Shown here in pieces: positions 2,440 through 55,489 of a stretch of 64,000 nucleotides of DNA; the first letter of the stretch is position 1; every line of letters starts with the position of its first letter. Below the pieces are notes generated by a model. It was not told the origin of the DNA. It did no database searches and was given only the letters and a program-made list of their open reading frames with translations. The position numbers and the translations under genes are program-made. Source of the stretch: a virus (taxonomy: Duplodnaviria; Caudoviricetes); IMG/VR virus record IMGVR_UViG_3300042885_001472, one strand, 5' to 3'.

Positions 2440-2757
2440 ATGAAAAACGTAATTAGGGAACAAATAAATAAAGTTAAGAATTTTGAAAAACTTATTAATG
2501 AGAATGTTGGGGATAAAAATAGTAAGTCAATTATTAATTTGATTTTTTCAGAAAATGAAATTGAAGAAATATATAGGATAAAAGATGATATAGCGTCAAA
2601 TTATTTAGATTCCCTAGATGTTGATCCCTTCACAAATGAAGATGATAGTGAGTTAGTAAATTTTGTTAAAAACACGATGACTAACAAAGGGGTTGAAGTA
2701 AGTGATGAAGAATTAAAAATTGTATTAGATTTAATTAATAGAAATATTTTAATTTAA
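2440..2757 (+). CDS. hypothetical late protein with a leader ending in LINE
   Basis: ATATTTAT at 2416-2423; N-terminus MKNVIREQINKVKNFEKLINE. Confidence 0.65.
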   Translation: MKNVIREQINKVKNFEKLINENVGDKNSKSIINLIFSENEIEEIYRIKDDIASNYLDSLDVDPFTNEDDSELVNFVKNTMTNKGVEVSDEELKIVLDLINRNILI

Positions 2758-2790
2758 AACTCCCCCTATCTCCAGATATATTTATACCAT

Positions 2791-3162
2791 ATGAAAGATT
2801 TAATTAAGAAGATACTAAAGGAAGAATTTAACCCCATTAATTACTACACAACATCAGGTCCAATGACAATGGATGATTTTATAGATATTGAGGTTGAGGA
2901 ACGGGAGAATTATGATCTTGATGATGTTAATGAGTGGATTGAAAAATATGACATTAAATCAAATGACGATATCATATGGGTGGCGTTAGAACCACACATC
3001 GCGGCGCGATATCAAATGAACAGTGGGGATTGGGATAACGCGAAAGAAGTTTATGATAGTAACCCCCATGATTTTGATGTTAAGGTTATAAATTCAAGTA
3101 AGGGATTTTTAATACCTGAAACGGATGATGGGGATGAGGGTTTCATATTTGTTTTTAGATAG
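2791..3162 (+). CDS. hypothetical late protein with an MKDLIKKILKE leader
   Basis: ATATTTAT at 2778-2785; acidic body. Confidence 0.7.
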   Translation: MKDLIKKILKEEFNPINYYTTSGPMTMDDFIDIEVEERENYDLDDVNEWIEKYDIKSNDDIIWVALEPHIAARYQMNSGDWDNAKEVYDSNPHDFDVKVINSSKGFLIPETDDGDEGFIFVFR

Positions 3163-3172
3163 TATTATTTAC

Positions 3173-3204
3173 TCCCCTATCCTTTATTGTGTAGGGGGCT
3201 TTTT
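3173..3204 (+). terminator. probable intrinsic terminator
   Basis: CCCCTA..TAGGGG stem followed by a T run after the 2791..3162 stop. Confidence 0.55.
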
Positions 3205-3276
3205 ATTGTCCATTAGAAACATACCAACTTTTTTTCTTTTTCAACCCCAAACCCCTTTATTCACATATTTATTGTT

Positions 3277-4455
3277 ATGAAAACCTTAAACGAACAAATT
3301 GAAAGAATTAATCAATTATCCAACTATGAGGTTGGTGTATTACTATCTGAACAAGATGTGGTTAATGATAAAGAAATGGTAATTAAAGGTGAAAGTTTTT
3401 TTGGTGATGGTAAATGGAAGAATTTATCAAAAGAAGGGTTAAATCATTTATTCAACGAATTAAAAAAAATGAGAACTTTTATTATTAACAATAAAAGTGG
3501 TGTTGTTTATATTAAAATTATCGCTGGTGAATCTCAAGTGACAAATTATGATTCTGAGGTAACCCCAAAAATCCCTGTAGAACCACGTTATTTATCATTA
3601 CATAGAGCGGATACGGTAAAAAAAGTTTTAACTAAATGGTTTAAAGATAGAAAAGATGAAGGTTTAATTAATGAAGTACCAATTTTTGAAGCTCCTGAAG
3701 TGGTTATAGGTAACAACTCTTATGTTAAAGGTGTAGATAACCCAGATGATAAAAAATATGTTCCAGAACGTTTTGTTAAAGTTGAGGTTAAAATTAAATC
3801 CCCATATGAATGTATTGTTGGATTAACGGTTGAGGTTATGTATAATAAAACTTATGACCCTAAATTTCCTTGTCGTGGTGGACATACTTGTAATGAGGCC
3901 AAATTTCAAGTAAATCTTAATGGTGTGTCAATTGGTATCGCTGATTTAAATAATGGTAGTTCACCAGATAGTGGTGGTAATAGAACTAGTGGTAAACTTA
4001 TTGTGGATGATTCAAAAGCCAAATCAATTATTGGTAATAAGAGTAAAAATATAATTATAAGTTTAAAATGTCTTTCTGGGGGTAATTGTCATTCTAGTAC
4101 ACCGGAAGTTAGAATATCTAAAGGAAATACAATCATTTATCATCAATGTTCACCATCAATAAATGATAGAGGTGAAACCCAGGAAAAAACTATTTTAGTT
4201 TTAGATAATTGTGGTAATTTATTACAAAAATCTAACCTACCGGCTGAAGAACAAAAAAAGGGGGATGATAAAAAAGATGTGAGTACCGTACCCCAAAAAA
4301 CATTAAAATCGTTAGATAATGATATTAAATTAATTACTGATTTAGTCACTAATAAAACTATAACTGGTAAGGGTAATTATTTTATTGTGAATAAAATGTT
4401 TAATCATAAAGGAACTCAATTTAATGTGAATGATACAATTTTGAATAAACCTTAG
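3277..4455 (+). CDS. hypothetical late protein with an MKTLNEQIERINQLS leader
   Basis: ATATTTAT at 3265-3272; 26-aa leader shared with 6399..7337; several Cys. Confidence 0.75.
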   Translation: MKTLNEQIERINQLSNYEVGVLLSEQDVVNDKEMVIKGESFFGDGKWKNLSKEGLNHLFNELKKMRTFIINNKSGVVYIKIIAGESQVTNYDSEVTPKIPVEPRYLSLHRADTVKKVLTKWFKDRKDEGLINEVPIFEAPEVVIGNNSYVKGVDNPDDKKYVPERFVKVEVKIKSPYECIVGLTVEVMYNKTYDPKFPCRGGHTCNEAKFQVNLNGVSIGIADLNNGSSPDSGGNRTSGKLIVDDSKAKSIIGNKSKNIIISLKCLSGGNCHSSTPEVRISKGNTIIYHQCSPSINDRGETQEKTILVLDNCGNLLQKSNLPAEEQKKGDDKKDVSTVPQKTLKSLDNDIKLITDLVTNKTITGKGNYFIVNKMFNHKGTQFNVNDTILNKP

Positions 4456-4863: not shown

Positions 4864-5451
4864 ATGATAAAAATATTATATATATTCCTAATACTTTACC
4901 CCACCATATTATTTTCTCAATTAAGAGATTCCGTTAAAATTAAAACCCCTATCTTTGAGATTATATATAGTGAAATTAAAGAAAGTCCCCTATTGGTGAA
5001 ATACCATGTTGAATGTCCTATGGGAACTATTCCAAGAACTGGTATGAATTTCTATGGTAATGATTCAATCCATACATCTGACGATTTAGATTACATTAAT
5101 AATGTTTACGATAAAGGACATATGGCCCCAGCGGCTGATTTTAATTGTACCAAGGAACTATTAAAACAAACATTTACCTATTTAAATTGTGTACTACAAA
5201 ACCAGTATTTAAATCGAGGTGTTTGGAAAATGTTGGAGATACAAGAAAGATTGTGGGCGAAGAATGATGATGTTGATGTAACTATTGAAATTAAATTTAA
5301 TAAAACTTGTAAAAAATTGGTCTCCGGAGCTGCAATCCCATTAGGATTTTATAAAACAATTAAATTAAAGAAAAAAAATAAAGTTTATAAGTACTATTTC
5401 CCAAATATAAAACCGGTAAAGGATAAATTTTTATATTATCAAATTAAATAG
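4864..5451 (+). CDS. secreted DNA/RNA non-specific endonuclease (NucA-like)
   Basis: YDKGHMAPAADF (DRGH-type) motif, QNQYLNRGVWKMLE, N-terminal signal peptide. Confidence 0.9.
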   Translation: MIKILYIFLILYPTILFSQLRDSVKIKTPIFEIIYSEIKESPLLVKYHVECPMGTIPRTGMNFYGNDSIHTSDDLDYINNVYDKGHMAPAADFNCTKELLKQTFTYLNCVLQNQYLNRGVWKMLEIQERLWAKNDDVDVTIEIKFNKTCKKLVSGAAIPLGFYKTIKLKKKNKVYKYYFPNIKPVKDKFLYYQIK

Positions 5452-5463: not shown

Positions 5464-6366
5464 ATGAAAATTATCATTACAGAATCTCAATATGAATTAC
5501 TAAACGAACAATTAGCTAAATACATTGGTAAAGGTATTGGTAAATTATTTAAATCAACACCAAAGGTTATTAAGTCAATTACACCGGAAATTAAAACATT
5601 AAATAGTGAATTATATAGAGTAATTCCACCTCAATATTTAAAAAACGAAAAAGAAGTTTCTTTATATATTTCCAGATTAAAAAGTCTTAATCAAGATTTA
5701 AATAAAATAAATGTGGATTACATAAAAAAATATGGACAAAAAGCGTATGATGATATTTTAATAAATTTTATTCTTGGTGGTTCTAACGAGAAAACTTTTT
5801 TAAATACATTAAAGAATGTGAAAAACCCAAATATAAGATTAAAACCCATTTTAGGTTTAGGTCGAGAACATTATGTATTTGAATCGGTATTATACCCTAA
5901 TAAAATTATTAAAGTTGAATCATCTCCTGGTACTATTAATAAATGGTATAGTATTTTTAAAAGTAGACCTGATATTTTTCCAGTAATGTTTAAAACTTTA
6001 AAAGTAACTGGTAAGGAAGGTGAAAAATTAATGGGTGTTGTTTTGGAAAGATTAGATACTTCAAAATTCATAAAATTATGGGGTGAAATTGAATCTGAAA
6101 TGTATCCACTTTTTAAAAATTTACCAATATCAGAAAGAGAAGTTTCATTGGAAGGTATTGTCAAATATATTAAAACCCCTAAAGTGAGAAAACAATGGGT
6201 AGAACTTTTAAATTTTACAAAAAAAGAAAAGCCTAATTTAACTCGAAGTATTGATGAGTTTTCAAAGATGGTGAATGAATTATATAAAATAACACCAAAT
6301 CCTGACATTAGAAAATTTAATTTTGGTTATGATGATAAAGGTGTTTTAAAATGTTTAGATATTTAA
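5464..6366 (+). CDS. protein kinase-like protein with an MKIIITESQ leader
   Basis: Gly-loop ILGLGREHYVF, IIKV lysine, GVVLERL hinge, catalytic loop PDIRKFN, terminal LDI. Confidence 0.65.
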   Translation: MKIIITESQYELLNEQLAKYIGKGIGKLFKSTPKVIKSITPEIKTLNSELYRVIPPQYLKNEKEVSLYISRLKSLNQDLNKINVDYIKKYGQKAYDDILINFILGGSNEKTFLNTLKNVKNPNIRLKPILGLGREHYVFESVLYPNKIIKVESSPGTINKWYSIFKSRPDIFPVMFKTLKVTGKEGEKLMGVVLERLDTSKFIKLWGEIESEMYPLFKNLPISEREVSLEGIVKYIKTPKVRKQWVELLNFTKKEKPNLTRSIDEFSKMVNELYKITPNPDIRKFNFGYDDKGVLKCLDI

Positions 6367-6398: not shown

Positions 6399-7337
6399 AT
6401 GAAAAACTTAAATGAACAAATAGAAAGGATTAATCAATTATCCGAATATAAGGTTGGTGTTGTTATTAATGAACAATCATCAACTGGGTGTAATTATTCT
6501 GATTATCAAAATGGTGATGGTATTAAAAAACCAAAAATTACGGTCACTAAATCACCGACTGGTGTTGATTTAACATATGAGGGTCCGGAAACTGGTTTTT
6601 GTATACAACATTCAAAAGGTTCTACCGGTGATAGTATTCACCAATTAGCTGGTGTGACTCGTGTAATTGTTTCACAATATCTAAAAGAATTATATAAACA
6701 AGGAACATTTGTTTATCCAGATTTAAAAAATATTGGTATGACTAAAAAAGATAAATTTTTTAGTATTAATGTACCATTTGTTAAAACTACTGAAAGTAAG
6801 GCTATCACAAATTTCAATGAACGTGGTGGTTGGGGACATACCGGTAACGATTCATTTAACGATTTTCTATCCACAATATCTGATACCACAAAATATGGTT
6901 TAGTTACTAAAGAAACTAAAGTGGCTTCTGGTGGTAATTCACCTGACATTACTGAAAATTGGGTATCATTTAGAGATCTTGAAAAATTTCCTATTATGAC
7001 ATCAACTGAAGGTGTGGATGAGTCTAATGAAAAAATTGAAAAAATTGAACATAATAATAATCCAAATATTTTAAGAGAAAGGTTAAAAAAGTTGGGTGTT
7101 ATAATCAATCCAAGTGTCAAATATGTGGGTACTAATAATGGGTATGTTGAAGTAAAATACTTAACAAATTGTCCTAATGAAGGAAAATGTGATAAAGTAA
7201 ATTTAAGTTATGTTTTTTCTGATAGTGGTGAAGAAGATACTGTATTAGAAAAAGTTAAAATTAAAAATACTATTGTAGATGAAATTGATTATTCTATGAA
7301 AGGTGTTAAAGGATATATTATTACTATCCAACAATAA
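6399..7337 (+). CDS. hypothetical late protein with an MKNLNEQIERINQLS leader
   Basis: ATATTTAT at 6387-6394; leader shared with 3277..4455. Confidence 0.75.
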   Translation: MKNLNEQIERINQLSEYKVGVVINEQSSTGCNYSDYQNGDGIKKPKITVTKSPTGVDLTYEGPETGFCIQHSKGSTGDSIHQLAGVTRVIVSQYLKELYKQGTFVYPDLKNIGMTKKDKFFSINVPFVKTTESKAITNFNERGGWGHTGNDSFNDFLSTISDTTKYGLVTKETKVASGGNSPDITENWVSFRDLEKFPIMTSTEGVDESNEKIEKIEHNNNPNILRERLKKLGVIINPSVKYVGTNNGYVEVKYLTNCPNEGKCDKVNLSYVFSDSGEEDTVLEKVKIKNTIVDEIDYSMKGVKGYIITIQQ

Positions 7338-7343: not shown

Positions 7344-7814
7344 ATGAAACTATTAATTAAAAAAATCTTAAAGGAAAATATTGATGATAAAATATTTGAT
7401 TTTGTTTTAACTAACATTGAAAGGGGAATTATTAAACCACCCTACGTTAAAACTTTGTCTGAAGATTTTGATTTACCTAATGATCAAATTAAAAGTATAT
7501 TGAAAAAAATTATTGGTGGTAAAGTTACTATGTATAAAAATGGTGATACACTGGTTATTGATCGTAGGGAAAACCGTTTATATGAAGAACATAAAGATGG
7601 TTGGTGGATTAAACAACTTTTTGATGAAAGGGATAATTTAATTTATAGTGAAACTCACGATGGTTGGGCTAAATGGGAATATGATGGGAATCGGAATCTG
7701 ACATACTATGAAAATGATGAAGGTACTTGGGAAAAGATAATGTATGATAAGTGGTCTAATAAAATAATTTATAATGAAACATCTGATGAAGGTGTAGTTA
7801 AAGATCTTAGATGA
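7344..7814 (+). CDS. hypothetical protein with an MKLLIKKILKE leader and short beta-repeat C-terminus
   Basis: Repeats of the type WAKWEYDGNRNLTYYENDEG. Confidence 0.7.
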   Translation: MKLLIKKILKENIDDKIFDFVLTNIERGIIKPPYVKTLSEDFDLPNDQIKSILKKIIGGKVTMYKNGDTLVIDRRENRLYEEHKDGWWIKQLFDERDNLIYSETHDGWAKWEYDGNRNLTYYENDEGTWEKIMYDKWSNKIIYNETSDEGVVKDLR

Positions 7815-8308
7815 AAAATTTAATTAGGAAAATATTAAAAGAATCAGTTGATAATAGAGTTATAGGTCTTATCAATAAAATGAATTTATCAACTTTTAGT
7901 GAAATTGATAACTTTTTAGAAGAGGTTGGGTATAGTGATGATGAAATTATTGAAATTTATCACAATTACTTTAAAACTATTAGTGGTTTAGAATTAAATC
8001 CTACAAACTGGATGGACTTTTACTTTAGTCCTGATCAATTGGAAATTTTTGAAGATAATAATTATCCCAATACATTATTTATCAAAAAAAATGGTAAGGT
8101 TGTAATGGAAAAAGATAAAAATTTTGAGGAAAATAAATATAAGATTATTTTTATAGATTATCGTTTAATTTGGTCTGTACTTAATAACTTATTTTTTATG
8201 AAAGATACGGAAGTAACTAATTTTTTAAATGAATGGTTGGAAGAAAATTTTAAAATAAAAAACTACAAACCTGTTTATCAATCGTTATCAACATACGGAA
8301 GTAACTAA
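7811..8308 (+). CDS. hypothetical protein with an MKNLIRKILKE leader
   Basis: ORF track; ATGA overlap with the upstream gene. Confidence 0.7.
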   Translation: MKNLIRKILKESVDNRVIGLINKMNLSTFSEIDNFLEEVGYSDDEIIEIYHNYFKTISGLELNPTNWMDFYFSPDQLEIFEDNNYPNTLFIKKNGKVVMEKDKNFEENKYKIIFIDYRLIWSVLNNLFFMKDTEVTNFLNEWLEENFKIKNYKPVYQSLSTYGSN

Positions 8309-8429: not shown

Positions 8430-9713
8430 ATGAAATTGTATATGAATTTAAGTAAAATAATTAAAGAAGTTATTAATGAGTCGATTTTAACTGAAGCTTT
8501 TACTATTGAAGATTTAAAGGATAAATTCGTTAATAAAGGAACTATTGATGAAGAAACTTTTGAAGAAATAATTGGGTTTAATTTAAAAATAAATTACACT
8601 AGTTGGTTACTAAAAATGGTAAACACTAATTTAATCCCCTCAGAAGATGTCTATCAATTTATCCATTATTTAGAAGTTTTTAATAAATTTAAAAATCTTT
8701 ACCCTATTAAAGATATTAATCGTATCAATAAAAATGAGGAAATTGAAGAATTCATCAAAACATCAATTAAAATAATTGAACAAAGTAGTACTAGTGGTCA
8801 AGAAACGAAGGGTGATAAGAATTATGTTACACCAACAGAAATTTCAAGGTTAGATAGGGTTGGTATAAGTTTTTTAGGTACGATTAGTAGATACCAAGTC
8901 TTTAAAATACCTTACACCATTAATCCTGAAGCGACCTGGAAAGAATATAGAGAAATATTAGGTAGATGTTCTGGTAGAGGTAGTGGTTTATTAGACCCTG
9001 ATGGTGAACCAGTGGCTGTTAAATTTTGTACTATAGCTACACTACCACGTTTTAAACAATACACAGAAGATGGTCCAATGTATGTATTTTTTAATACAGC
9101 TGATCATTTAAGTCCTTATCAATTTCACTATGAAAGTAGTCAGTATAAAGACAGAAGAAATCTAAACATATTTACGGGTGTAAAAATAGGTAGTAAAGAA
9201 TTTAAAATTTATAATTCATTTTTTAACTTTTTATTTGAAAAAGAAGGGAGGGTTATACCTAAAGATGTGTTTGATATTTATATGAAACCAGAATCCAATG
9301 GAATAATAAGTCCTAAAAATATAAAATTATTTGCCCAAGAATTTGGTATAAATACGATACCAACAGAATATTTAGATTCATTACGTGAAAGTTATATTAG
9401 AACAATTAATAATAGTTTAAAAAAATCAAAAATTAATACCATTCCTTTAGAATTTTATGTAAACATACAAAATATATTTAACCCAAAAAATTCAAAATAT
9501 GTTTTAGATTTTTTAAAAAGTAATAGTATTAAAGCACCACAAGAATTGATTGATTTGTCTGAACGTAAGATTAATAAATTTTCAACTATGAGTGACACTG
9601 AATTAAAACAATACCCTAAAGGAATTGGGGGGAGTAAAAATGTTGACTGGTATGAAAGTACTGAATTTGATGAGTGGGAAAAAGAGATAGAACTTAGAAA
9701 TTTTTTTAAATAA
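8430..9713 (+). CDS. hypothetical late protein (FCT..YQFHYESSQ domain)
   Basis: ATATTTAT at 8418-8425 favors the ATG at 8430 or 8442; domain shared with 16584..18074. Confidence 0.7.
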   Translation: MKLYMNLSKIIKEVINESILTEAFTIEDLKDKFVNKGTIDEETFEEIIGFNLKINYTSWLLKMVNTNLIPSEDVYQFIHYLEVFNKFKNLYPIKDINRINKNEEIEEFIKTSIKIIEQSSTSGQETKGDKNYVTPTEISRLDRVGISFLGTISRYQVFKIPYTINPEATWKEYREILGRCSGRGSGLLDPDGEPVAVKFCTIATLPRFKQYTEDGPMYVFFNTADHLSPYQFHYESSQYKDRRNLNIFTGVKIGSKEFKIYNSFFNFLFEKEGRVIPKDVFDIYMKPESNGIISPKNIKLFAQEFGINTIPTEYLDSLRESYIRTINNSLKKSKINTIPLEFYVNIQNIFNPKNSKYVLDFLKSNSIKAPQELIDLSERKINKFSTMSDTELKQYPKGIGGSKNVDWYESTEFDEWEKEIELRNFFK

Positions 9714-9715: not shown

Positions 9716-10396
9716 ATGAGAAAAAAAATTATACAATTAACGGAATCAGATCTTAGAGAATTAGTCCGTAAAATAATGGTTGAGGTTGAGTTACCTACGG
9801 AAGAAGTATCTGATCCGGTAATAGATTCAATAAGAGATAGGGTTATTGATCATGAGGGTAAACGAAATACGGTTTATAAAGATTCTCGTGGAATACCCAC
9901 AATAGGTGTTGGTTTTAATTTAAATAGACAAGATTCAAACGCTTTATTAACACAAGTTGGGGCTAATCCTGGACAAATAAAACGAGGACAAAGTAAACTT
10001 AGTAATAAACAAATTAATACATTATTAAATAAAGACCTTAAAAAATCTAAAGAAGACGCTAAACAATTAGTTAAAAACTTTACAGGATTACCATCAGAAA
10101 TACAAGGTGTACTTATTGAAATGGTATTTAATTTAGGTAAGTTTGGTTTAGCTAAATTTAAGAAATTTTTAGATTACATTAATAAAAAAGATTGGAAAAA
10201 AGCTTCAATTGAAATGTTAGATTCTGATTGGTCTAAACAAGTTGGTAGACGTTCTAAAACACTTTCAAATATAATCGCGTTACAAGGTTCATATGGTGAT
10301 TTATCTAACGCTAAAAATGTTTATGATAAACTTAACCAAACTGATGTTTTTATGGGTAAACAATTTGATAAAAATACTGGTTTAAAGATTAATTAA
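9716..10396 (+). CDS. T4-lysozyme-like muramidase (GH24-like) with an N-terminal leader
   Basis: HEGKRNTVYKDSRGIPTIGVGFNL gives the T4L Glu/Asp/Thr triad spacing; MVFNLG; SDWSKQVGRR. Confidence 0.9.
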   Translation: MRKKIIQLTESDLRELVRKIMVEVELPTEEVSDPVIDSIRDRVIDHEGKRNTVYKDSRGIPTIGVGFNLNRQDSNALLTQVGANPGQIKRGQSKLSNKQINTLLNKDLKKSKEDAKQLVKNFTGLPSEIQGVLIEMVFNLGKFGLAKFKKFLDYINKKDWKKASIEMLDSDWSKQVGRRSKTLSNIIALQGSYGDLSNAKNVYDKLNQTDVFMGKQFDKNTGLKIN

Positions 10397-12730: not shown

Positions 12731-13408
12731 ATGAAATATTTAATAAAAAAAATACTAAACGAAATTGTATTCAATCCTGATAGAGAAAAATTTAAATGGA
12801 GAGATATTGGTTCATTAAATGTTAATGGTAAAAAAATACATACTAGTACTTTTAGGACTCCAACTTATAAATATATAGTAAACGCTGAGGAATATCCAAA
12901 TCATTTTTATTTAATTTCATTTTATCCTTCACTAAATACTGATTTTTTTGTGAAACAATTTTTGAAACAAGAAAGGGGTCGTACTTATTATGATAAGTAT
13001 AGTTATAGAACAAATGAAAAAGTTATATCACCAGAAGATCAGGTGAGATTATCTAAAATGGGTGGTAAAGAAAGAAGGGAAGAACTTAATAAATTACCTT
13101 CAATGGCCTATAAAGTTTTTGCCTTAATAATGGAATATATGGATGAAATATTAAAAAAAGATCCATTAGCTTCATTCGGATATTTTGGTGCTGCGGATTC
13201 AAAAGGATCTGAAAATCCTGATGATGATATAATTGACACTAAAAGATTTAGAGTTTATAGATTAATGTTAGATGATCGTTTTAAAAATACACATACACCA
13301 TACCATAAAGAATCATTTAGTGGATCACTATATATTAATAATGAAGCTGAGAATAATTTCCCTAATATTATTGAGTTTGCCAATAAAATTTTACAGAGTC
13401 ACCTATAA
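12731..13408 (+). CDS. hypothetical late protein with an MKYLIKKILNE leader
   Basis: ATATTTAT at 12719-12726. Confidence 0.7.
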   Translation: MKYLIKKILNEIVFNPDREKFKWRDIGSLNVNGKKIHTSTFRTPTYKYIVNAEEYPNHFYLISFYPSLNTDFFVKQFLKQERGRTYYDKYSYRTNEKVISPEDQVRLSKMGGKERREELNKLPSMAYKVFALIMEYMDEILKKDPLASFGYFGAADSKGSENPDDDIIDTKRFRVYRLMLDDRFKNTHTPYHKESFSGSLYINNEAENNFPNIIEFANKILQSHL

Positions 13409-14194: not shown

Positions 14195-14740
14195 ATGGAA
14201 CATATAATTAAAAAATTATTAGTGGAAATGATTTCAAATGAAGAATTACCATTAAATAAACTTGAAATACTTGCGTTAAAATTTTTAACAAAAACCAATT
14301 TAACTCCAAAAACAAATCAAAATATTATAATTAAAAAATTGATGTCTGAGTTAGATTTTACGCGTGAAGAAGCCGTTAAAATTTACTTTTTATTTCTGAG
14401 TAATTACCGAAAAGATTCTGATTATGAGAGTATTATTACTCCAAATAGATCTTCATTCACTAAAAGTACTAGTACATCCAATAAAAGAGGTAGAGATTTT
14501 GTGATAAATAGAATTCCGTTTACCGGTTCAAATACAATGGGAAAATATGTTGGTGGGGTTTATGTTGTAACTTCATATAATTGGTACCCAATCTTTGTTT
14601 TTAAAAATGGTCAATGGTATGAAAATGAAAGTGGTTATAGTATGAGTACTAAAAAACAAATTAGTCAATTAAGACCTAATGGTGAGAATATTATAAAATT
14701 AAAAGTGGATGAGTTGAAGGATTTGTATTCTTCTTACTAA
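14195..14740 (+). CDS. hypothetical late protein with an MEHIIKKLLVE leader
   Basis: ATATTTAT at 14183-14190. Confidence 0.7.
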   Translation: MEHIIKKLLVEMISNEELPLNKLEILALKFLTKTNLTPKTNQNIIIKKLMSELDFTREEAVKIYFLFLSNYRKDSDYESIITPNRSSFTKSTSTSNKRGRDFVINRIPFTGSNTMGKYVGGVYVVTSYNWYPIFVFKNGQWYENESGYSMSTKKQISQLRPNGENIIKLKVDELKDLYSSY

Positions 14741-15831: not shown

Positions 15832-16176
15832 ATGAATATATTAATAAATGGTAGAGAATATCCGTTAGAAGTTAAATTAACACAAAAATCTAAATCCAAG
15901 GGGATGATGGGTAGAAATAATCTAAATGGTGGAATGATATTTATATTTGATAAACCACAAACACACTCTTTCTGGATGAAAGATTGTTTAATACCCTTAG
16001 ATATCATTTTTTTAAGGGGTAATACGATTACAACCATACATCATTCATGTAAACCTTGTGATAAAGATGAATGTGAACGTTATGAAGGTATTGGTGACTC
16101 AGTATTAGAGTTTTTAGGGGGTTTTTGTAAAGATAATGAACTTAGTGTGGGTGACCATGTTGAATTTGTTCATTAA
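15832..16176 (+). CDS. DUF192 family protein
   Basis: KGMMGR..GGMIFIF..SFWMKDCLIPLDIIF..SVLEF. Confidence 0.85.
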   Translation: MNILINGREYPLEVKLTQKSKSKGMMGRNNLNGGMIFIFDKPQTHSFWMKDCLIPLDIIFLRGNTITTIHHSCKPCDKDECERYEGIGDSVLEFLGGFCKDNELSVGDHVEFVH

Positions 16177-16477
16177 TAGTTAAATTAAGTTGATTTAGTA
16201 TCTTTATCTCAATAATTCTGAGTTCTTTATTCTTTTTTTTAATTTTATTTAACACTTCAGTCACTACTTTTATTGGTACTTCATTATCACTAACCCTATA
16301 TCTAATTTCATCAATATGTTTATCATCACTTAATCTTCTCAATTCATTCACTAATGAATCATATAAATTCCATTCATCCTTACTTTCATTAAACAATGAT
16401 CTACCATAAATCATTCTTTTACGGTAATCTGTTTTCAACAAAGATTCTTTTAATATCTTTTTTAATTTTTTTCTCAT
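16142..16477 (-). CDS. hypothetical late protein with an MRKKLKKILKE leader
   Basis: ATATTTAT on the minus strand at 16483-16490. Confidence 0.65.
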   Translation of the reverse strand: MRKKLKKILKESLLKTDYRKRMIYGRSLFNESKDEWNLYDSLVNELRRLSDDKHIDEIRYRVSDNEVPIKVVTEVLNKIKKKNKELRIIEIKILNQLNLTINEQIQHGHPH

Positions 16478-19596: not shown

Positions 19597-19608
19597 ATTT
19601 TATTTTTA

Positions 19609-33523: not shown

Positions 33524-33578
33524 TTTTTTCAAAATTTCCGATACTTATATTAAAGGATAAACCTTAAAGTAAATCAAT

Positions 33579-44055: not shown

Positions 44056-44547
44056 TTAATTTATATTACTGAAATAAAGTTTTAAATCATCTCCCAAATA
44101 TAAATCAACACCTTTTAATTGTTTTCCACTATTGGTTAACTGATTTTCAAATTGATATGAATGATCAAAAAATCCAGCACCATGACCATTCCTTGTTAAC
44201 CAAATATCCATACCTAACTGGAATGTCCCATTATCATCTAAAGCTTCAGAAATCGCTTGTTCTCCGGCCATATTAATAAATTTTTTAATATCAATATAAG
44301 CTTGAATTTTAGAATTATCATCCAAATCATCAACACCTAAAGAACCTAAATCAATATCTTCAGAATAATCAAACATACTTTCATACTCAGCGGTTAATTG
44401 TTCTTCCTCAGTCCATAGGGCGGATTCTAAATAACCTTTTAATATTTCAAGTAATTCCTCATCACTTACATAAAAATCATTAGATGGGGATTCCTTTATC
44501 AGTTTTAATTGATTTACCGAGTTTTTAATATGTTGTTTAATATTCAT
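44056..44547 (-). CDS. hypothetical late protein
   Basis: DIWLTRNGHGAGFFD motif; minus-strand ATATTTAT at 44560-44567. Confidence 0.7.
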   Translation of the reverse strand: MNIKQHIKNSVNQLKLIKESPSNDFYVSDEELLEILKGYLESALWTEEEQLTAEYESMFDYSEDIDLGSLGVDDLDDNSKIQAYIDIKKFINMAGEQAISEALDDNGTFQLGMDIWLTRNGHGAGFFDHSYQFENQLTNSGKQLKGVDLYLGDDLKLYFSNIN

Positions 44548-45198: not shown

Positions 45199-48100
45199 AT
45201 GGCTGATAATAAAAATTTAACGGTTTGGCAGAAACTGGGGGTTCTATTTGGACCTGATAAAAAACCTATAATAGGACCAACCAAATCATATTCAATTGAT
45301 TCAAAAGAACTATTAAGAACAAAGTCTAAAGAAGAGTTTAGTACTGAGAAATTACAAAAACAACAAAATTTATATTTAAATAATCAATGGGAGAAGGTTG
45401 ATAATACATTGTACCAACAAGCGATGTTTTATGAAACAACTAGAATTTCATCTTATACCGATTTTGAGTCTATGGAATTTTTCCCAGAGATTTCAGCGGC
45501 TTTAGATATTCTAATGGAAGAATCTACAACACAAGATAGTAAGGGTAATATTTTACAAATCCATTCCGAATCTGATAGGGTTAAAAAAGTTTTAACTGAT
45601 TTATTTCATAATAGATTAGATATCCATACAACATTACCAATGTGGACAAGGAACGTTTGTAAATATGGCGATAATTTCATATATTTAGATATTGATGATG
45701 AAAATGGTATTACTAATTGTAAACAATTACCCAATATTGAGATTGAAAGACATGAAGGTGATGTTTATAATTCAATAAATGGTGTCATTGATATTAACAG
45801 AAATAAGAAAAAGGGTGATGATCTAAAATTTGTTTGGAAAAACAGAGAGTTTGAATTTAATTCTTGGCAAATAGGTCATTTTAGATTACTTGGTGATGAT
45901 AGAAGATTACCATATGGTACTTCAGTATTAGAAAAAGCTAGAAGGATTTATAAACAATTAATGTTATCTGAAGATGCTATGTTAATTTATAGAATTACCA
46001 GAGCTCCAGAACGAAGAATATTTAAAATATTCGTGGGTAATATTGATGACAAAGATGTTGAACCATATGTACAACAAATTGCGAATAAATTTAAAAGGTC
46101 ACCGGTAGTTGATCCTAAGACTGGACAAATTGATTTAAGATATAATCAAATGGCCAATGATCAGGATTTTTTCATCCCGGTTAGAGATCAAGCAGCGACA
46201 AATCCAATTGAAACATTAGCTGGTGCGTGTATATCGTTAGATAGTAGAATTCCATTATTGGATGGTAGAACACTTACATTAAATGAAATTATTAATGAAT
46301 GGGATAATGGTAATAGAAATTTATGGGTATACTCTTGTGATCCCAAAACTGGTGAATTTACCCCTGGAATAATTACTTGGGCTGGTGTTACTAGAAAAAA
46401 TACTGAAGTAATGAAAATTACATTGGATAACGGTGAAGAGATTACCGCAACGCCTGATCATAAATTTGTTCACAGAACTAATGGCTTTGTGGCGGCTAAT
46501 GAATTAAATGTTGGTGATTCGTTAATGCCTTTTTATAGTAAAAAATCAATTTATTATAAACATTATGATTATCAACAAATATTTGATAATAAAACTCAAA
46601 AATGGGTTTGGGTACATAAAGAAGTTACTAAGTTCCATAAAAATAATTTAGTGAATGAGACAACATTTTTAGAGGAATATAAAGACCAAAATCATTCTAC
46701 TATACATCATATTAATTTTAATAGGTTTGACAATTCACCAACTAATTTAACATTTATGAATAGTAAAGACCACTTTAAATTACATTGTAAAAATCAACAA
46801 ATAGGGAGTAAAGCTTTTTCCGAGAAGTATAAAAATAACCCTAATTTCGCTAAAAGAGTAAGAAAACATTTAAATGAGTGTAATAAAATATTTCACGATA
46901 AAAGAAATTCTGATCCAGAATATAAAGAATTCATTAGAAGTAAACAAAAAGAATCTATTAATAAATTTTTTAATGAATTATCGGTAGAAGAATTAAAAAA
47001 ATGGTGTGAAAGGATTAATAACCCAATAACTAAAGCTAAAACCACAAAAAAATTATTAAAATGGTGTGAGAACCCAGACAATTTAAAATTAAAAGGTCAG
47101 ATAATTAGTACCGTTAAATCAACCCCAGAAGCTAAAGAAAAAATGAGTAAGATGTCTAAAAGTATTTGGGTGAGAGAAGGATATAAAGAGTCAGTATTTA
47201 GTAAAAAACAAACTTTAATTTTCAATGATAAACTTTACAATATGTTTATTAATGAATTTGAAAAACATTTACGTTCAGATTTAACTTTACAAGTTTTAAA
47301 TAGAAGTTCTAACTTTATGTTTGAGTTTAATTCTATTAATAAAGATATTAGGAGTTCATTAACTAATTTAAATACATTCACCCATAATCATTTAGAAAAA
47401 ATGATTAAAGAAAAAGGATTTAAAAATTTTAGGGAGTGGAAAAAAGAGGAAATTATTAAAAGAGGTTTCATCAATTTACGTCAATGGCAATATTATCTCG
47501 ATAAAGAGAATGGTAAATATGGTAGTAAAGAAAGGGGTAAGTCAATTAATCAATTCTATAATCATAAAATTGTAAAAATAGAATATCTAGAACAGAGAAT
47601 TGATACGGGCACTATCACAGTAGATGGTAATGAAATGTATCATAATCATCACACATTCGCCTTAGAATCAGGTATTTATATCAAAAATTCTAATTTGTCT
47701 GAAATTGCAGATATTGAATATCTTCAAAAGAAATTATTCGCAGCACTTAGAGTTCCTAAACCATTTTTAGGTTTTGAATCAGCTGTAGGTGATGGTAAAA
47801 ATTTAGCATTACAAGACATACGTTTCACAAGAACTGTTAATAGAATTCAACAATCTATGTTACAAGAATTAAATAAAATCGCTATTATTCATTTATTCAT
47901 ATTGGGGTTAGATGAAGAATTAAGTAATTTTACTTTAACTTTAAATAACCCTTCTACACAAGCAGAAATGTTACGCACAGAACAAATGCAGGTGAAGATG
48001 CAATTATATAAAGATTCTGTTTCTGATGCCGGTAATGGGTTTGCTGCGATGTCTATGACTAGAGCTAAGAAAGAAATATTAAACTTTTCTAATGATGAAA

Positions 48101-48609
48101 TACGTCTTGATATTGAACAACAAAGACTTGAAAAAGCAGCCGCAGCTGAATTAGCTAATACATCCGCGGTAATTAAAAAGACTGGTTTATTTGATAAGAT
48201 AGATAACATTTATGGTGATACTACTGGTGAAGCTGTCACTGAAGGTGGTGGTGATGTAACACCTCCAGCTGGTGGGCCTGAAATGGGTGGTGAAGAAATG
48301 GGTGGTGCACCTCCAGAACCAACAACACCAGAAACAACAGAACCAACACCGCCTACAATGGAGTCTGGGGTTAAAAATTTAGATAAGTTATTATTAGAAA
48401 GAAAAGAATTTTTAATGAAATCGTATGATAGTAAACAAAAAAAACATAAGGCTAATTATATTAACAAATTGATTGAAAGTATTGAAATACGAGAAGAATA
48501 CAAGGTAAATATTAATGAGAGTAAAAATAATGTTTCGGATAGTAACAATAGACACAATAATGATATAACAAATATGGTTGATAATATTAATAATTTATTA
48601 AATAAATAA
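45199..48609 (+). CDS. gp20: portal protein (T4 gp20-like) containing a cis intein
   Basis: MLSEDAMLIYRITRAPERRIFKI..DFFIPVR..ETLAGA|intein|SNLSEIADIEY..ALRVPK. Confidence 0.93.
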   Translation: MADNKNLTVWQKLGVLFGPDKKPIIGPTKSYSIDSKELLRTKSKEEFSTEKLQKQQNLYLNNQWEKVDNTLYQQAMFYETTRISSYTDFESMEFFPEISAALDILMEESTTQDSKGNILQIHSESDRVKKVLTDLFHNRLDIHTTLPMWTRNVCKYGDNFIYLDIDDENGITNCKQLPNIEIERHEGDVYNSINGVIDINRNKKKGDDLKFVWKNREFEFNSWQIGHFRLLGDDRRLPYGTSVLEKARRIYKQLMLSEDAMLIYRITRAPERRIFKIFVGNIDDKDVEPYVQQIANKFKRSPVVDPKTGQIDLRYNQMANDQDFFIPVRDQAATNPIETLAGACISLDSRIPLLDGRTLTLNEIINEWDNGNRNLWVYSCDPKTGEFTPGIITWAGVTRKNTEVMKITLDNGEEITATPDHKFVHRTNGFVAANELNVGDSLMPFYSKKSIYYKHYDYQQIFDNKTQKWVWVHKEVTKFHKNNLVNETTFLEEYKDQNHSTIHHINFNRFDNSPTNLTFMNSKDHFKLHCKNQQIGSKAFSEKYKNNPNFAKRVRKHLNECNKIFHDKRNSDPEYKEFIRSKQKESINKFFNELSVEELKKWCERINNPITKAKTTKKLLKWCENPDNLKLKGQIISTVKSTPEAKEKMSKMSKSIWVREGYKESVFSKKQTLIFNDKLYNMFINEFEKHLRSDLTLQVLNRSSNFMFEFNSINKDIRSSLTNLNTFTHNHLEKMIKEKGFKNFREWKKEEIIKRGFINLRQWQYYLDKENGKYGSKERGKSINQFYNHKIVKIEYLEQRIDTGTITVDGNEMYHNHHTFALESGIYIKNSNLSEIADIEYLQKKLFAALRVPKPFLGFESAVGDGKNLALQDIRFTRTVNRIQQSMLQELNKIAIIHLFILGLDEELSNFTLTLNNPSTQAEMLRTEQMQVKMQLYKDSVSDAGNGFAAMSMTRAKKEILNFSNDEIRLDIEQQRLEKAAAAELANTSAVIKKTGLFDKIDNIYGDTTGEAVTEGGGDVTPPAGGPEMGGEEMGGAPPEPTTPETTEPTPPTMESGVKNLDKLLLERKEFLMKSYDSKQKKHKANYINKLIESIEIREEYKVNINESKNNVSDSNNRHNNDITNMVDNINNLLNK
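46228..47688 (+). mobile_element. cis intein (487 aa) with an HNH endonuclease
   Basis: Starts CISLDSRI; TPDHKF block B; IHHINFNRFDNSPTNL HNH; ends GIYIKN followed by Ser+1. Confidence 0.92.
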
Positions 48610-50507: not shown

Positions 50508-51191
50508 ATGATTAAAATATTGAAACCAGGTGAGATTGGTCATGGTGTACTAATTGAAACCGATTCAGGATATATTTCACCAAAAGATAATCAAAAATTC
50601 ATAAACGAAATTAAAAAACTTGATTCCGGACAAAGAATTATTGAAGAACCATTAATACTTTACGCTGTATTACAAAAGTGTGGTGTAGAGAATAAAAATG
50701 GTCGTATATACCCAAGAGAAATTCTTGAAAGAGAAGCGAGGAATTATCAAAAAGTTATTCAAGAAGGTAGAGCTCTTGGTGAAGCCGATCACCCAGAGTC
50801 TTCTATTATATCAGTTGATAGAGTATCTCATAATATAACTGAGATATGGTGGGAAGGTAATACCTTATTAGGTAAACTAGAAGTCCTAATGTCACCAGGG
50901 TTTGTTAATCAAGGAATTATTTCATGTAAAGGTGATCAAGTAGCCAATCTAATTAGAAAGGGTATTATGATTGGTGTATCATCAAGGGGTGTAGGTTCTT
51001 TAGATAAGAAGGAGGGTAAAAATTATGTACAAGAAGATTTTGAATTAATTTGTTGGGATGTTGTTACATCACCTTCAACACCGGGTTCTTGGATATTTAA
51101 TAGAAAAGAAGAATCAGCTCCATTTGTGGAATCAACACAAAGTAAAAAACCATTAATAATAGACACATTAGATAATTATTTAAACGACTAA
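50508..51191 (+). CDS. gp21: prohead core protease (T4 gp21-like)
   Basis: NKNGRIYP, GEADHP, VSHNI, GVSSRGVGS, DVVTSPS. Confidence 0.95.
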   Translation: MIKILKPGEIGHGVLIETDSGYISPKDNQKFINEIKKLDSGQRIIEEPLILYAVLQKCGVENKNGRIYPREILEREARNYQKVIQEGRALGEADHPESSIISVDRVSHNITEIWWEGNTLLGKLEVLMSPGFVNQGIISCKGDQVANLIRKGIMIGVSSRGVGSLDKKEGKNYVQEDFELICWDVVTSPSTPGSWIFNRKEESAPFVESTQSKKPLIIDTLDNYLND

Positions 51192-51194: not shown

Positions 51195-51482
51195 ATGAAA
51201 TTAAAAGTAAAAATTACTGAATCTCAACTAGAAGAATTGAGAAGTAAATATTCAACACTTAAATCAATTGACTCTAATAAAAATCCATACATTAAAAAAG
51301 GATTTTTATTTATAAAATTAGATTCAACAAAATCAGTACCTGAAGACTCGTACAACTTTTCAGACGAGGAAGCTAAAGAACTTAATAAAATGGGTCACGA
51401 GTTAGAGGCTTTAAAAGCTTCTTATGAAGAAAAATTAAAATCACTAACTGGTGGTAATAAAGTTAAAAAAGAAAAAGAATAA
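51195..51482 (+). CDS. hypothetical protein with an MKLKVKITESQL leader
   Basis: Leader motif; lies between protease and scaffold. Confidence 0.65.
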   Translation: MKLKVKITESQLEELRSKYSTLKSIDSNKNPYIKKGFLFIKLDSTKSVPEDSYNFSDEEAKELNKMGHELEALKASYEEKLKSLTGGNKVKKEKE

Positions 51483-52805: not shown

Positions 52806-52849
52806 TAAAATAATAATAACAAAAAAAACAAAAACAAAAAGATAAAAAA

Positions 52850-54664
52850 ATGGGACATCTTTTAAATTCAGGCGAGGTTGGTAACATAGGGTTAGAACAC
52901 CTTAAACAAATCCGCGTAAAAACAATCAATAAATGGGACGAATTAGGCTTCTTAAAAGGTCTTAAAGGTCACGTTAGAGAAAACATCGCTCAGTTATATG
53001 AGAATCAAGCTTCTCACTTATTAAATGAGTCTACAACTGCAGGTGACGCATCAGGTTCTTTTGAAACTGTTGTATTTCCAATCGTAAGACGTGTATTCTC
53101 TAAATTATTAGCAAATGATATCGTTTCAGTTCAAGCGATGAATATGCCAATCGGTAAATTATTCTTCTTCGTACCAGTTACGTCTGACAGAAATAACTCT
53201 GGTGAATGGCAAGACATCCCTACAAGCTCAACGGCTCAAGGTGCTACATCTAAAAACCCGATCATTAGTGGTCAATTACCTGAGTGTGTAACAGGATTTA
53301 ACTGTTCAGTTGCAACTTTCTCAGTATGTGCTAAGTCATTATATGACCGATTTTATAATGATGGTTTATTCGATCATTCTAAAGGTACAGCAACAATTAA
53401 CATTGCAACTGGTACTCCGGTAGTATGGACAGCTTGTACAACTGGTAGTGAATTTACTCCTGGTACTACAGCAACTGCTTTTGATAGTTCAGTTAGAAAA
53501 CAAATTCTTGAAGTTGAAGGTTTCAACGGTGCTAATGCTGGAAGAATGGGTAACAATTCACCTGGTTCTGATTCTCCTAACGGAAACGAAATGGATTCTG
53601 AAGAATTTTTAGCTTCTTTATCTGTAGTAGCAGCTACTGCTATTTATGATAATGATGGTAAAATGGTTCTTAACTCTGGTGATGAAGTTCCATTCCGTGT
53701 GGTAACTCAAAAATACGGTAAAGGTATCGTAGCATATAACGACATTTGTGATGCTGTAGGTAAATTATACATTGAGGTTGATTTAACTCACCCTGCTTGT
53801 GTATCTTGTGGTACAAACACAATTGATGGTTATACTGGTGCTGAATCTGGTTGGACAGCGTCTACTGATTCATTCGTAGTTGGATGGAGACAATACAGTT
53901 CATTAGAACTTTCTACTGAAATGGGTGAGGTTTCTTTCCGTTTAGATGAGGTTGTAGTTTCTGTAACTGAAAGAAAGTTAAGAGCTAGCTGGTCTCCAGA
54001 ATTAGCACAAGACGTTTCAGCGTTCCATAACATTGATGCTGAAGCTGAATTAACAGCTTTATTATCTGAGCAAGTTGCTGCTGAAATTGATCGTGAGATT
54101 TTACGTGATTTACGTAAAGGTGCTGCTTGGCAATTACGTTGGGATTATAATGGTTGGAAACGTGTTGCAACTGTTGCGACTCCATATACTCAAAAAGAAT
54201 GGAATCAAACATTAATCACTAAATTAAATCAATTATCTGCTCAGATTCACAAATCTACTTTAAGAGGTGGTGCTAACTTTATCGTTGTATCTTCTGAAGT
54301 ATCTGCGATTTTTGATGATTTAGAATATTTCCACGTATCTAATGCTAATCCTGAACAAGATCAGTATAACATGGGTATTGAGAGAATTGGTAGTTTAGGT
54401 GGTCGTTACACAGTGTATCGTGATCCTTATGCTCCAGCTAACTCAATCATCATTGGTCACAAAGGTAAATCATTGTTAGACACTGGTTATATCTACGCAC
54501 CATATGTACCATTACAATTAACTCCAACGATGTATAATCCATTTAACTTCGCGCCAGTGAAGGGTATTATGACTCGTTACGCTAAGAAAATGGTAAATAA
54601 CCGTTTCTACGGACATGTTAGAGTTGACGGTATCCAAACATTTGATACAAGAGAATTACGATAG
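52850..54664 (+). CDS. gp23: major capsid protein (T4 gp23-like)
   Basis: VFPIVRRVF, VQAMNMPIG, RKLRASWSPELAQD, EIDREI, YAPYVPL, GIMTRYA. Confidence 0.97.
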   Translation: MGHLLNSGEVGNIGLEHLKQIRVKTINKWDELGFLKGLKGHVRENIAQLYENQASHLLNESTTAGDASGSFETVVFPIVRRVFSKLLANDIVSVQAMNMPIGKLFFFVPVTSDRNNSGEWQDIPTSSTAQGATSKNPIISGQLPECVTGFNCSVATFSVCAKSLYDRFYNDGLFDHSKGTATINIATGTPVVWTACTTGSEFTPGTTATAFDSSVRKQILEVEGFNGANAGRMGNNSPGSDSPNGNEMDSEEFLASLSVVAATAIYDNDGKMVLNSGDEVPFRVVTQKYGKGIVAYNDICDAVGKLYIEVDLTHPACVSCGTNTIDGYTGAESGWTASTDSFVVGWRQYSSLELSTEMGEVSFRLDEVVVSVTERKLRASWSPELAQDVSAFHNIDAEAELTALLSEQVAAEIDREILRDLRKGAAWQLRWDYNGWKRVATVATPYTQKEWNQTLITKLNQLSAQIHKSTLRGGANFIVVSSEVSAIFDDLEYFHVSNANPEQDQYNMGIERIGSLGGRYTVYRDPYAPANSIIIGHKGKSLLDTGYIYAPYVPLQLTPTMYNPFNFAPVKGIMTRYAKKMVNNRFYGHVRVDGIQTFDTRELR

Positions 54665-54687
54665 TCGTAATTAACAATAACAAATAT

Positions 54688-54717
54688 AAAAAGGGTGATT
54701 AATAGTCACCCTTTTTT
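54688..54717 (+). terminator. intrinsic terminator after the capsid gene
   Basis: AAAAAGGGTGA-TTAATAG-TCACCCTTTTTT. Confidence 0.9.
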
Positions 54718-54739
54718 ATTTTAACGAATATTTATTCAT

Positions 54740-55489
54740 ATGGGAAAATATCAAAAATTTATATTAGAAGCTTTAGTAATTGACACTATTTCTAACATAT
54801 CGGAAGAAGATAAAAAATTGTTAAATTTACTACATAAATTATATGGTAAAAAAAGTTCTTGGATGTTAGATGTAAATGAAATTGTCAATTTTATTGAAGA
54901 AATTGGTTTTAGTTACACTAAATCTTTAAAATTAACTACTTACTACATTAAAAATAGAGATTTATTATTTACAGAATATTCCGATGTAAGTGGTAGTATT
55001 CACACATCAAAAATTTTATATAAATTTTTAGAAAAATATTTAGCGGATGATAGAATTAATAAATGGGGTGATTTGGTCAAAGAAAAAGTTGATAATAGTG
55101 AAGAATTTAAAAAATATGAAGATAAAGTAAAAATTAGTACCACATTATGGCAACATTATGGTGATCAAATTAGTTTCTTTATTTTTAATTATATAGACTA
55201 CCAAAATCCTTTAAATTGGAGTTGTTTAATAACGTATAGTTTTAAAGATTTAGAAAAAATGGATACGAATATTGATAGAATACCATTAAAAGTAAGTATA
55301 AAAAATATTGAAGGTAATTTTCCAGTTCCAGAATTGGAAGGGTCTTTTGATATGATTGACATACCAATAGATTTTGATGTTGAAGATATAAGTAAAAAAG
55401 ATATTCATAAAATCTTATTAGGTGATAAGAATTCTATAACATCAGATTTAGAAGAAAGATTAGGTCAAATAATGTCTTTTATTGACTAA
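54740..55489 (+). CDS. hypothetical late protein
   Basis: ATATTTAT at 54728-54735; leader ending in FILE. Confidence 0.7.
   Translation: MGKYQKFILEALVIDTISNISEEDKKLLNLLHKLYGKKSSWMLDVNEIVNFIEEIGFSYTKSLKLTTYYIKNRDLLFTEYSDVSGSIHTSKILYKFLEKYLADDRINKWGDLVKEKVDNSEEFKKYEDKVKISTTLWQHYGDQISFFIFNYIDYQNPLNWSCLITYSFKDLEKMDTNIDRIPLKVSIKNIEGNFPVPELEGSFDMIDIPIDFDVEDISKKDIHKILLGDKNSITSDLEERLGQIMSFID

Follow-up and report, generated by a model that had tools for sequence, protein, structure and literature searches.

A bipartite N-terminal leader on unrelated proteins of uncultured T4-like jumbo phages: a candidate expanded capsid-targeting system

Why should some twenty proteins of one phage, unrelated in their bodies, begin with nearly the same few residues? 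The question is raised by a 64,000-nucleotide (nt) stretch of DNA (hereafter the window) of IMG/VR virus record IMGVR_UViG_3300042885_001472, a member of the Caudoviricetes. The original prediction, made from the letters of the window, had described about 19 proteins with shared N-terminal leaders ending in (I/L)-x-E and proposed that these leaders load a diverse cargo into the capsid. The window is coding dense, has a G+C content of 27–30%, and is part of a distant, uncultured T4-like phage. A DNA-level search of GenBank phages gave no near match to it, and one window protein is also recorded on a 294,686-base contig, which puts the parent phage at about 295 kilobases (kb). The answer that we favour, with reasonable rather than high confidence, is an expanded system of the phage T4 type, in which the leaders serve as N-terminal propeptides that direct proteins to the capsid.

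Genes are named here by the first coordinate of their open reading frame (ORF), and their coordinates are collected in Table 1. All the predicted starts and leaders are present and read as described, except that 16142 and 44056 lie on the minus strand, with their leaders at the high-coordinate ends; the true start of gene 8430 is the ATG at 8430 and not the TTG at 8415. Sixteen leaders are clear, three are loose (2440, 44056 and 54740), and there are two extra candidates (39982 and 48649). The class A pattern MKxLI(K/R)KIL(K/N)E occurs in 2791, 7344, 7811 and 12731; the class is also clear in 14195, 41217 and 16142 and looser in 8430, whereas 44056 and 54740, originally placed with it, resemble it only loosely. 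The class B pattern (I/L)(T/K)ES(Q/D/E)(L/M/Y) is seen in all six proteins assigned to it (5464, 9716, 16584, 18163, 39110 and 51195). In class C, the leaders of 3277 and 6399 are identical at 20 of 26 residues (BLASTP E = 1e-7), whereas 2440 is only loosely related to them. Leader lengths are 11 residues in class A, 15–16 in class B, 26 in class C, and 22 in a composite form described below. The leaders sit at the extreme N-terminus and end in [ILV]-x-E, with the Glu invariant at the close of the conserved block.

This placement is highly biased. Of all residues in window proteins only 13% fall within the first 25 positions, yet these positions hold seven of the eight matches to a class A core regular expression, all six class B matches, and all three class C matches; a six-frame search of the window for the leader motifs gave no extra matches. 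When the first 25 residues of all proteins were compared all-against-all without reference to the motifs, 22 pairs scored at least 35, against 1–6 pairs for random internal segments, and the top pairs were the listed leader genes. The bodies behind the leaders are unrelated, as had been claimed, and BLASTP departs from this only for 8430 and 16584 (25% identity, E = 3e-6). The codons of class A leaders vary synonymously (AAA/AAG, ATA/ATC/ATT, CTA/TTA), which indicates that the peptide is conserved under selection and is not recently copied DNA.

The division into three leader families does not stand. By profile alignment, class A corresponds to the C-terminal half of a single composite leader and class B to its N-terminal half, so that A, B and the composite form a single bipartite family, while class C is specific to this genome. 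The composite consensus is MKKIIKLTESDLxRIVKRVIxEQ, in which L7, E9, L12 and E22 do not vary among 33 sequences; many proteins of relatives start with it. Its optional N-terminal module, (K)(I/L)TES(D/Q)L, is class B; its C-terminal module, (I/L)(I/V)K(K/R)(I/V)(L/I)xE, is class A; and a protein may start with either module or with both. Within the window the composite is carried by 9716, 39110 and 18163. The first half of the composite profile matches class B leaders and the second half class A leaders, and in a pair of orthologs 72% identical to each other a short class A leader aligns to the second half of a composite. The body of 7811, which has a class A leader, is homologous to an L037 protein with a class-B-type leader (E = 5e-9), and for 39982, whose own leader is degenerate, there are homologs bearing a clean class A leader (E = 2e-12). 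Orthologous bodies, as judged from these homologies, swap leader type.

Some ORFs are little more than the tag. Leader-only mini-ORFs of 25–47 residues occur in the IMG/VR loci L088, L096 and L133 and in the window at 18163–18306, where the original description of the 47-residue protein as nearly all leader was confirmed. Such ORFs may have been left behind when cassettes were exchanged, or may encode free leader peptides that have their own role.

The tag extends well beyond the window. Searching IMG/VR with a strict nucleotide pattern of the composite leader retrieved at least 120 stretches, and 80 loci were analysed; all 81 matches there lie 3–11 residues after a Met (74 of them 4–6 residues after), every full-length example extends to V(I/L)xE, with Gln next in 52 of 78, and the bodies form 34 clusters with no relation to one another. 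For the exact class A leader, MKxLIKKILKE, IMG/VR gave 112 stretches; the 80 loci analysed held 98 matches, 87 of them at the first Met of an ORF. These matches head 31 unrelated body clusters and often lie in tandem arrays. Composite and class A leaders are found together in the same genomes. Three complete genomes of 269–321 kb contain 6, 13 and 13 composite-leader ORFs, all aligning from profile position 1 and many of them clustered, and at least 592 IMG/VR contigs, some longer than 300 kb, encode capsid proteins 59–91% identical to that of the window. On this sampling the tag hardly varies within a large uncultured clade of jumbo phages. One complete record (G003, the IMG/VR record of L122; 268,739 bases) was observed to encode two paralogs of the S77 prohead protease, at ~31.3 kb and 233.5 kb.

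The composite sequence itself appears to be specific to this clade. Its profile found no match in the cultured Flavobacterium phage vB_FspM_immuto_2-6A (immuto; NC_055915.1, our L081), whose leaders belong to a different sequence family, and gave one weak match in the 484-kb record LR756508. Immuto has analogous leaders of its own, which head numerous hypothetical proteins encoded around its head module (MKKSELVKLIKE, MKKSQLRQIIKE, MKKSQIVKAVQE and, twice, MENxFDLKKFLVE), and these end in [ILV]xE near its S77 protease, at 100–150 kb. A search of a 5.8-billion-protein collection with residues 1–40 of 39110 reached orthologs only, since the leader is too short for significance; a tblastn search of GenBank phages with a 28-residue leader gave no matches, and our literature search found no paper describing the motif or a comparable expansion.

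What would read such a tag is suggested by the head genes of the window, which follow the T4 order of terminase, portal, core-like protein, S77 protease, scaffold-like protein and capsid. When the protease (50508) is aligned to T4 gp21 (PDB 5jbl, an inactive mutant), in which the catalytic residues are numbered H85 and S140 (PMC12991175), the catalytic His and Ser are both kept, and by these two residues the enzyme is predicted to be intact. The capsid protein, only ~40% identical to those of the closest cultured relatives (e.g. immuto), has VRE44, LYE51 and LNE60/STT (a slash marks a putative cut) just N-terminal to the part aligned with mature T4 gp23*; the LLNE picked out originally is residues 57–60. 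LYE51 and LNE60 lie 2–11 residues before the stretch that pairs with residue 15 of mature gp23* in the alignment, so that an L-x-E motif stands at the expected maturation position, where cleavage is predicted. The core-like protein 48649 has ten [ILVM]xE sites, with Ser next in most of them. Over head and core proteins together, Ser follows [ILVM]xE at 19 of 58 sites, compared with 39 of 435 elsewhere, a preference that matches the ITE/S of all six class B leaders. A further candidate head protein is the very acidic 566-residue product of 37025–38725 (+), which contains three tandem (E/D)EFDYRRDFLGNKE repeats and whose start, ..LSPLNE/STT, resembles the capsid maturation site. A role as another scaffold or as an internal head protein is possible for it.

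Leader genes and head genes also share a promoter-like box. The octamer ATATTTAT occurs 38 times in the window, 25 times on the sense strand within 60 nt upstream of a start codon. Fourteen of these 25 boxes end 3–6 nt before the ATG, a spacing at which permutations of the octamer give at most four, and a second spacing class lies 12–17 nt from the ATG. In the box-abutted genes, ATATTT occupies positions −12 to −7 counted from the A of the ATG, and such genes are probably transcribed as leaderless mRNAs. The box is found upstream of the protease, core-like and other structural genes, and before 13 of the 19 leader genes (odds ratio 13.7, p = 3.6e-6); most leader genes without one lie downstream of a box in the same orientation. 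Related TATTTATA boxes stand upstream of the head genes of immuto. An early-type block at 23.6–35.9 kb, with RNA ligase, thymidylate synthase and many small genes, has almost no boxes. As to whether the leader motifs are equally common in early genes, which had been raised as a challenge to the packaging proposal, leaders are present in none of the 36 genes of this block and in 19 of 71 genes elsewhere (p = 2.6e-4), an outcome that favours the proposal.

In silico, the packaging proposal is supported in part, by the modular tag and its [ILV]-x-E end, the S77 protease and its co-occurrence with the leader, the capsid motif and the shared box; its three families need revising. Under a T4-type scheme, tagged proteins and head proteins would be made together late in infection, and the short amphipathic leader helix would dock the tagged proteins on the scaffolding core of the forming prohead. 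The gp21-type S77 protease would then cut after [I/L/V]-x-Glu (..KILKE/x, ..ITE/S or ..V(I/L)xE/Q), freeing the mature protein inside the head, from which it would exit with the DNA at the next infection. Core docking, cleavage, virion residence and ejection are steps that we infer for the tagged proteins. The two tag modules could represent two cleavage steps or two grades of docking.

The closest precedent is T4. There, a capsid-targeting sequence (CTS) is present on the internal proteins (IPs) IPI, IPII and IPIII and on Alt, gp24 has a propeptide, and all are removed by gp21 (Mullaney and Black, 1996; PMC9026906, PMC3012670, PMC5694885). Cleavage by gp21 follows L/I-x-Glu, the first 10 residues of IPIII are enough for packaging, and the propeptides of gp24, the IPs and Alt are 10–20 residues long (PMC9026906, PMC5694885, PMC3012670). 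The window resembles T4 in having short N-terminal leaders that end in L/I-x-Glu on otherwise unrelated proteins, a gp21-type S77 protease with gp20-, gp22- and gp23-type genes in the same order, a capsid protein with the same motif at its expected maturation site, and, as with Alt, enzymes among the cargo. It differs in scale, with ~20 tagged genes in 64 kb compared with ~4–5 in T4, and in the tag, which is bipartite, 11–22 residues long and near-invariant clade-wide, with no evident sequence similarity to the T4 CTS. The tagged genes, whose function here is a predicted one, also lie in several scattered clusters, each with its own late-type box abutting the ATG. By this comparison it would be an expanded, structurally elaborated form of the T4 CTS system and not a new kind of system.

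Two other known arrangements are less close. In phages phiKZ, 201phi2-1 and SPN3US, a gp21 homolog cuts 8–19 head proteins, ejection proteins among them, on the C-terminal side of Glu (Thomas et al.; PMC5694885, PMC9026906), and the SPN3US paralogs gp53 and gp54 have conserved N-termini (PMC5694885, PMC9026906). One ejection protein of these giant phages has a membrane segment after its propeptide, as do some homologs of the 5464 body. Their motifs are S/A-x-E and their propeptides mostly exceed 100 residues, in contrast to the I/L/V-x-E and 11–26 residues seen here, and unlike the present clade they have no single portable tag on dozens of unrelated proteins. The hyperplastic internal-protein locus of the T-even phages encodes differing basic proteins that bear CTS-like sequences in T2, T4 and T6 (PMC9026906, PMC3012670). 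There too the leader is conserved while the bodies are diverse and turn over fast, which has been read as arms-race cargo; that locus comprises a handful of genes at one site, whereas here at least 31–34 body families per leader type are found clade-wide.

What the leaders are attached to was partly foreseen. Protein 9716 matches the phage lysozyme family PF00959, 16584 has leucine-rich repeats at its C-terminus, and the description of 5464 as kinase-like is backed by fold and motifs. Pfam gave no match for 5464, and the Atlas groups the protein with viral clusters in which part of the annotations read T7-type or Pkinase (score 0.94). Its body has 95 homologs; across 38 of them G131, G133, K150, D281 and D299 are invariant and N286 nearly so, which provides a Gly-rich loop, a beta3 Lys, a catalytic D-x4-N and a DFG-type Asp. 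An alignment-based AlphaFold model (predicted local distance difference test, pLDDT, 85.5) retrieved only protein kinases among its top 50 PDB matches (E = 2e-4 to 2e-3), at TM-scores of only 0.23–0.32, and the modelled body is best described as a protein-kinase-like fold. In the model, a leader helix at residues 7–25 and a disordered linker precede a folded body that begins at residue 41, a layout expected for a detachable tag. Homologs of the body carry class B, composite and other leaders, and four proteins (P0099, P0102, P0104 and P0105) share only the first ~45 residues with 5464, namely the class B leader and a basic Lys/Gly-rich linker, ahead of unrelated bodies. Many of the longer homologs have a hydrophobic, Gly-rich, membrane-like segment between leader and kinase.

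For most other cargo bodies Pfam and PHROGs gave no function, and Atlas look-ups of 3277 and 41217 were uninformative. A single-sequence AlphaFold model of 9716 (pLDDT 47) was too poor and was not used. The remaining cargo proteins are ORFans; several are basic and in this resemble the T4 IPs, and others are very acidic. A family beside the capsid gene in relatives (KKILKE/ATSDSGG..SYVAPLQ) was considered as a gp24-type vertex protein and dropped, there being no Pfam match.

Several observations weigh against capsid targeting of the T4 type or limit what speaks for it. S77 (PF03420) is encoded in 14 of 15 long leader-bearing contigs, including all six that are at least 90% complete (the exception is a 71%-complete record). 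This counts in favour, but the linkage was counted among leader-bearing contigs only and is expected of any trait specific to a T4-like clade; it is necessary, not sufficient, for the hypothesis. The density of [ILVM]xE sites in scaffold-like proteins is barely above the expectation from composition (z 1.3–2.7), and its use as a scaffold marker was dropped. Late expression of the leader genes, together with the head proteins, is predicted from a promoter-like motif. Class C has no exact-pattern match in IMG/VR and no looser-pattern match in 3.2 megabases of related loci, and its standing is weaker than that of A, B and the composite because it is found in this genome only. The close relatives are uncultured and the nearest cultured phages distant. 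The near-invariance of the tag over 16–22 residues goes far beyond the loose 10-residue T4 CTS and hints at a partner more specific than the scaffold core, while some of the very acidic tagged proteins could be assembly factors and not ejected cargo.

The last point leads to the rival that survives best, which we nevertheless regard as unlikely. Here the leaders would still be prohead-targeting propeptides cut by S77, and most tagged proteins would act at assembly, as core, size-determining or inner-body components that are degraded or kept in the head, and not as effectors in the next host. Proteins 41217, 39982, 44056 and 2791 are indeed strongly acidic (net charges −43, −26, −19 and −18), a scaffold-like trait; 51195 lies within the head operon, 48649 is core-like, and T4 gp67, gp68 and gp22 are likewise substrates of gp21 (PMC9026906). 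However, the lysozyme, and the kinase-like enzyme with its intact catalytic motifs, have no obvious role in assembly, and the fast turnover of bodies between relatives, in 31–34 unrelated clusters, is a better fit to accessory cargo.

Less probable still is a reading in which the leader helix docks on a different common partner (a chaperone, assembly factory, membrane complex, or tail or ejection apparatus, for instance) and the terminal [ILV]xE is incidental. The length and conservation of the tag, with four residues invariant in the 33 sequences, exceed what a T4 CTS requires and speak for such a partner. On the other side, the invariant Glu ends the conserved block and a variable disordered linker follows directly, the capsid and core proteins show the same motif with the same preference at the residue after the cut (P1'), and the promoter box is common to leader and head genes.

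We consider it very improbable that the leaders are degradation tags for a phage ClpC/ClpP that limit protein lifetime. The window does encode a ClpP-like protein (709–1437) and an AAA+ protease/chaperone split over three ORFs at 18337–23544 (−). ClpP is absent, though, from the complete G003, which has 13 composite-leader ORFs, and from the complete immuto genome, whereas S77 is present in both. Linkage of the tag to ClpP or to radical-SAM enzymes was also considered and rejected, neither enzyme being consistently co-encoded. The AAA+ pieces (phrog_4871) lie at 22720–23544, 21184–22662 and 18337–19596, with an unrelated 493-residue ORF (19617–21098) between the last two.

No likelier is a constraint on translation initiation, by which leaderless late mRNAs would impose shared N-termini regardless of protein function. 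With a box ending 3–6 nt before the ATG in 14 genes, transcripts would begin at or near the start codon, and AUG AAA starts are common, so that the Met-Lys beginnings could be accounted for in this way. Against this, synonymous codons differ while the peptide is kept, 16–22 residues are conserved with an invariant Glu at the end, class A leaders occur on operon-internal genes without a box (7344 and 7811), and the box-preceded genes 4864 and 36012 have no leader. Recognition of the leader by a modifying enzyme, as in ribosomally synthesized and post-translationally modified peptides, is scarcely credible, as Pfam revealed neither a radical-SAM enzyme nor any other candidate for such a modification in the scanned window proteins and PF04055 is absent from two of the three complete leader-bearing genomes.

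Table 1. Leader genes, head genes and late-type boxes of the window. A slash marks a putative cut after Glu; box distances are in nt.
Feature	Position	Strand	Leader or motif	Remark
105-residue protein	2440-2757	+	weak class-C-like, MKNVIRE/QINKV..KLINE/N	late-type box 16 nt upstream
123-residue acidic protein	2791-3162	+	class A, MKDLIKKILKE/E	box 5 nt from ATG
392-residue ORFan	3277-4455	+	class C, 26 residues (LNE/Q .. LLSE/Q)	box 4 nt from ATG
300-residue basic protein	5464-6366	+	class B, MKIIITE/SQYELLNE/Q	disordered basic linker, kinase-like body
312-residue ORFan	6399-7337	+	class C	body unrelated to 3277 body
156-residue protein	7344-7814	+	class A, MKLLIKKILKE/N	
165-residue protein	7811-8308	+	class A, MKNLIRKILKE/S	L037 ortholog with class-B-type leader
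427-residue protein	8430-9713	+	looser class A, ..SKIIKE/VINE/SILTE/A	body weakly related to 16584
226-residue phage lysozyme (PF00959)	9716-10396	+	composite, ..IIQLTE/SDLRELVRKIMVE/V	
225-residue protein	12731-13408	+	class A, MKYLIKKILNE/I	
181-residue protein	14195-14740	+	class A, MEHIIKKLLVE/M	
111-residue basic protein	16142-16477	-	class A, MRKKLKKILKE/S	leader at 16477 end
496-residue protein	16584-18074	+	class B, ..VKITE/SQMNYLFE/N	C-terminal leucine-rich repeats
47-residue ORF	18163-18306	+	composite	nearly all leader
166-residue protein	39110-39610	+	composite, ..VIKLKE/SDLEKLVKKILKE/D	
405-residue acidic protein	39982-41199	+	degenerate, ..ISLKLFE/Q	absent from earlier list; L064 and L035 homologs with clean class A
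347-residue very acidic protein	41217-42260	+	class A variant, MLKKITHKLLKE/E (..HKLLKE)	just upstream of terminase gene
Large terminase	42320-44053			head module
163-residue protein	44056-44547	-	loose, ..NQLKLIKE/S	..LKLIKE at residues 12-19
gp20-type portal with intein and HNH endonuclease	45199-48609	+		Pfam, PHROGs
Core-like protein, 257 residues	48649-49422	+	N-terminus ..FNKVLSE/S	place of T4 gp67/68
gp21-type prohead protease (Peptidase_S77)	50508-51191	+		PF03420, E = 2.4e-25
95-residue protein	51195-51482	+	class B, ..VKITE/SQLEE/L	between protease and scaffold genes
Acidic scaffold-like protein, 402 residues	51597-52805	+	21 [ILVM]xE sites	place of T4 gp22
gp23-type major capsid protein	52850-54664	+		PF07068, E = 2.6e-71
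249-residue protein	54740-55489	+	loose, MGKYQKFILE/A	box 4 nt from ATG
ATATTTAT box, example	3265-3272	+		
Other ATATTTAT boxes (all but 48628 and 50485 listed as ending 3-6 nt before the ATG)	2778, 4852, 5452, 6387, 8418, 12719, 14183, 41205, 48628, 50485, 54728			

Some further features of the window were recorded in passing. In the portal gene, Portal_T4 is matched in two stretches and Pfam also reports Intein_splicing, while PHROGs places the HNH match at residues 448–534. The product of 4864–5451 (+) is a DNA/RNA non-specific endonuclease (PF01223) with a signal-peptide-like hydrophobic N-terminus in place of a leader and a late-type box 4 nt before its ATG. In the early-type block, the Pfam model for thymidylate synthase (403 residues; region 32312–34412, +) is matched in two stretches, which suggests that the gene holds an insertion, and a GIY-YIG/I-TevI-like homing endonuclease follows at 33579–34412. 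The same block encodes two predicted membrane proteins of 47 residues (30549–30692 and 31836–31979, +) that are 87% identical and ~1.3 kb apart.

In its broadest form, the T4-type reading would describe a widespread clade of uncultured 270–380-kb T4-like phages, probably of freshwater Flavobacteriia, that loads the capsid, by means of one near-invariant bipartite tag of 11–22 residues, with dozens of proteins per genome that are exchanged rapidly and would be co-injected, with a protein kinase, a lysozyme and many ORFans among the cargo. This is a more tentative proposition, for which we would claim not quite an even chance. If it is true, the proteins that uncultured phages inject could be catalogued from sequence by means of the tag. 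Should the tag act like the T4 CTS, every carrier is predicted to be delivered to the host with the DNA, amounting to hundreds of body families clade-wide. Proteins that arrive in this way are expected to include those for anti-defence and host takeover, T4 IPI* and Alt being examples. As a cheap sequence filter, the tag would help to find such functions in metagenomes, and a packaged kinase-like enzyme would be a new kind of pre-made effector. Immuto, being cultured, is a ready experimental system, and the short conserved tag could be adapted as a handle for packaging in engineered Bacteroidota phages, a use to which the CTS has been put in T4.

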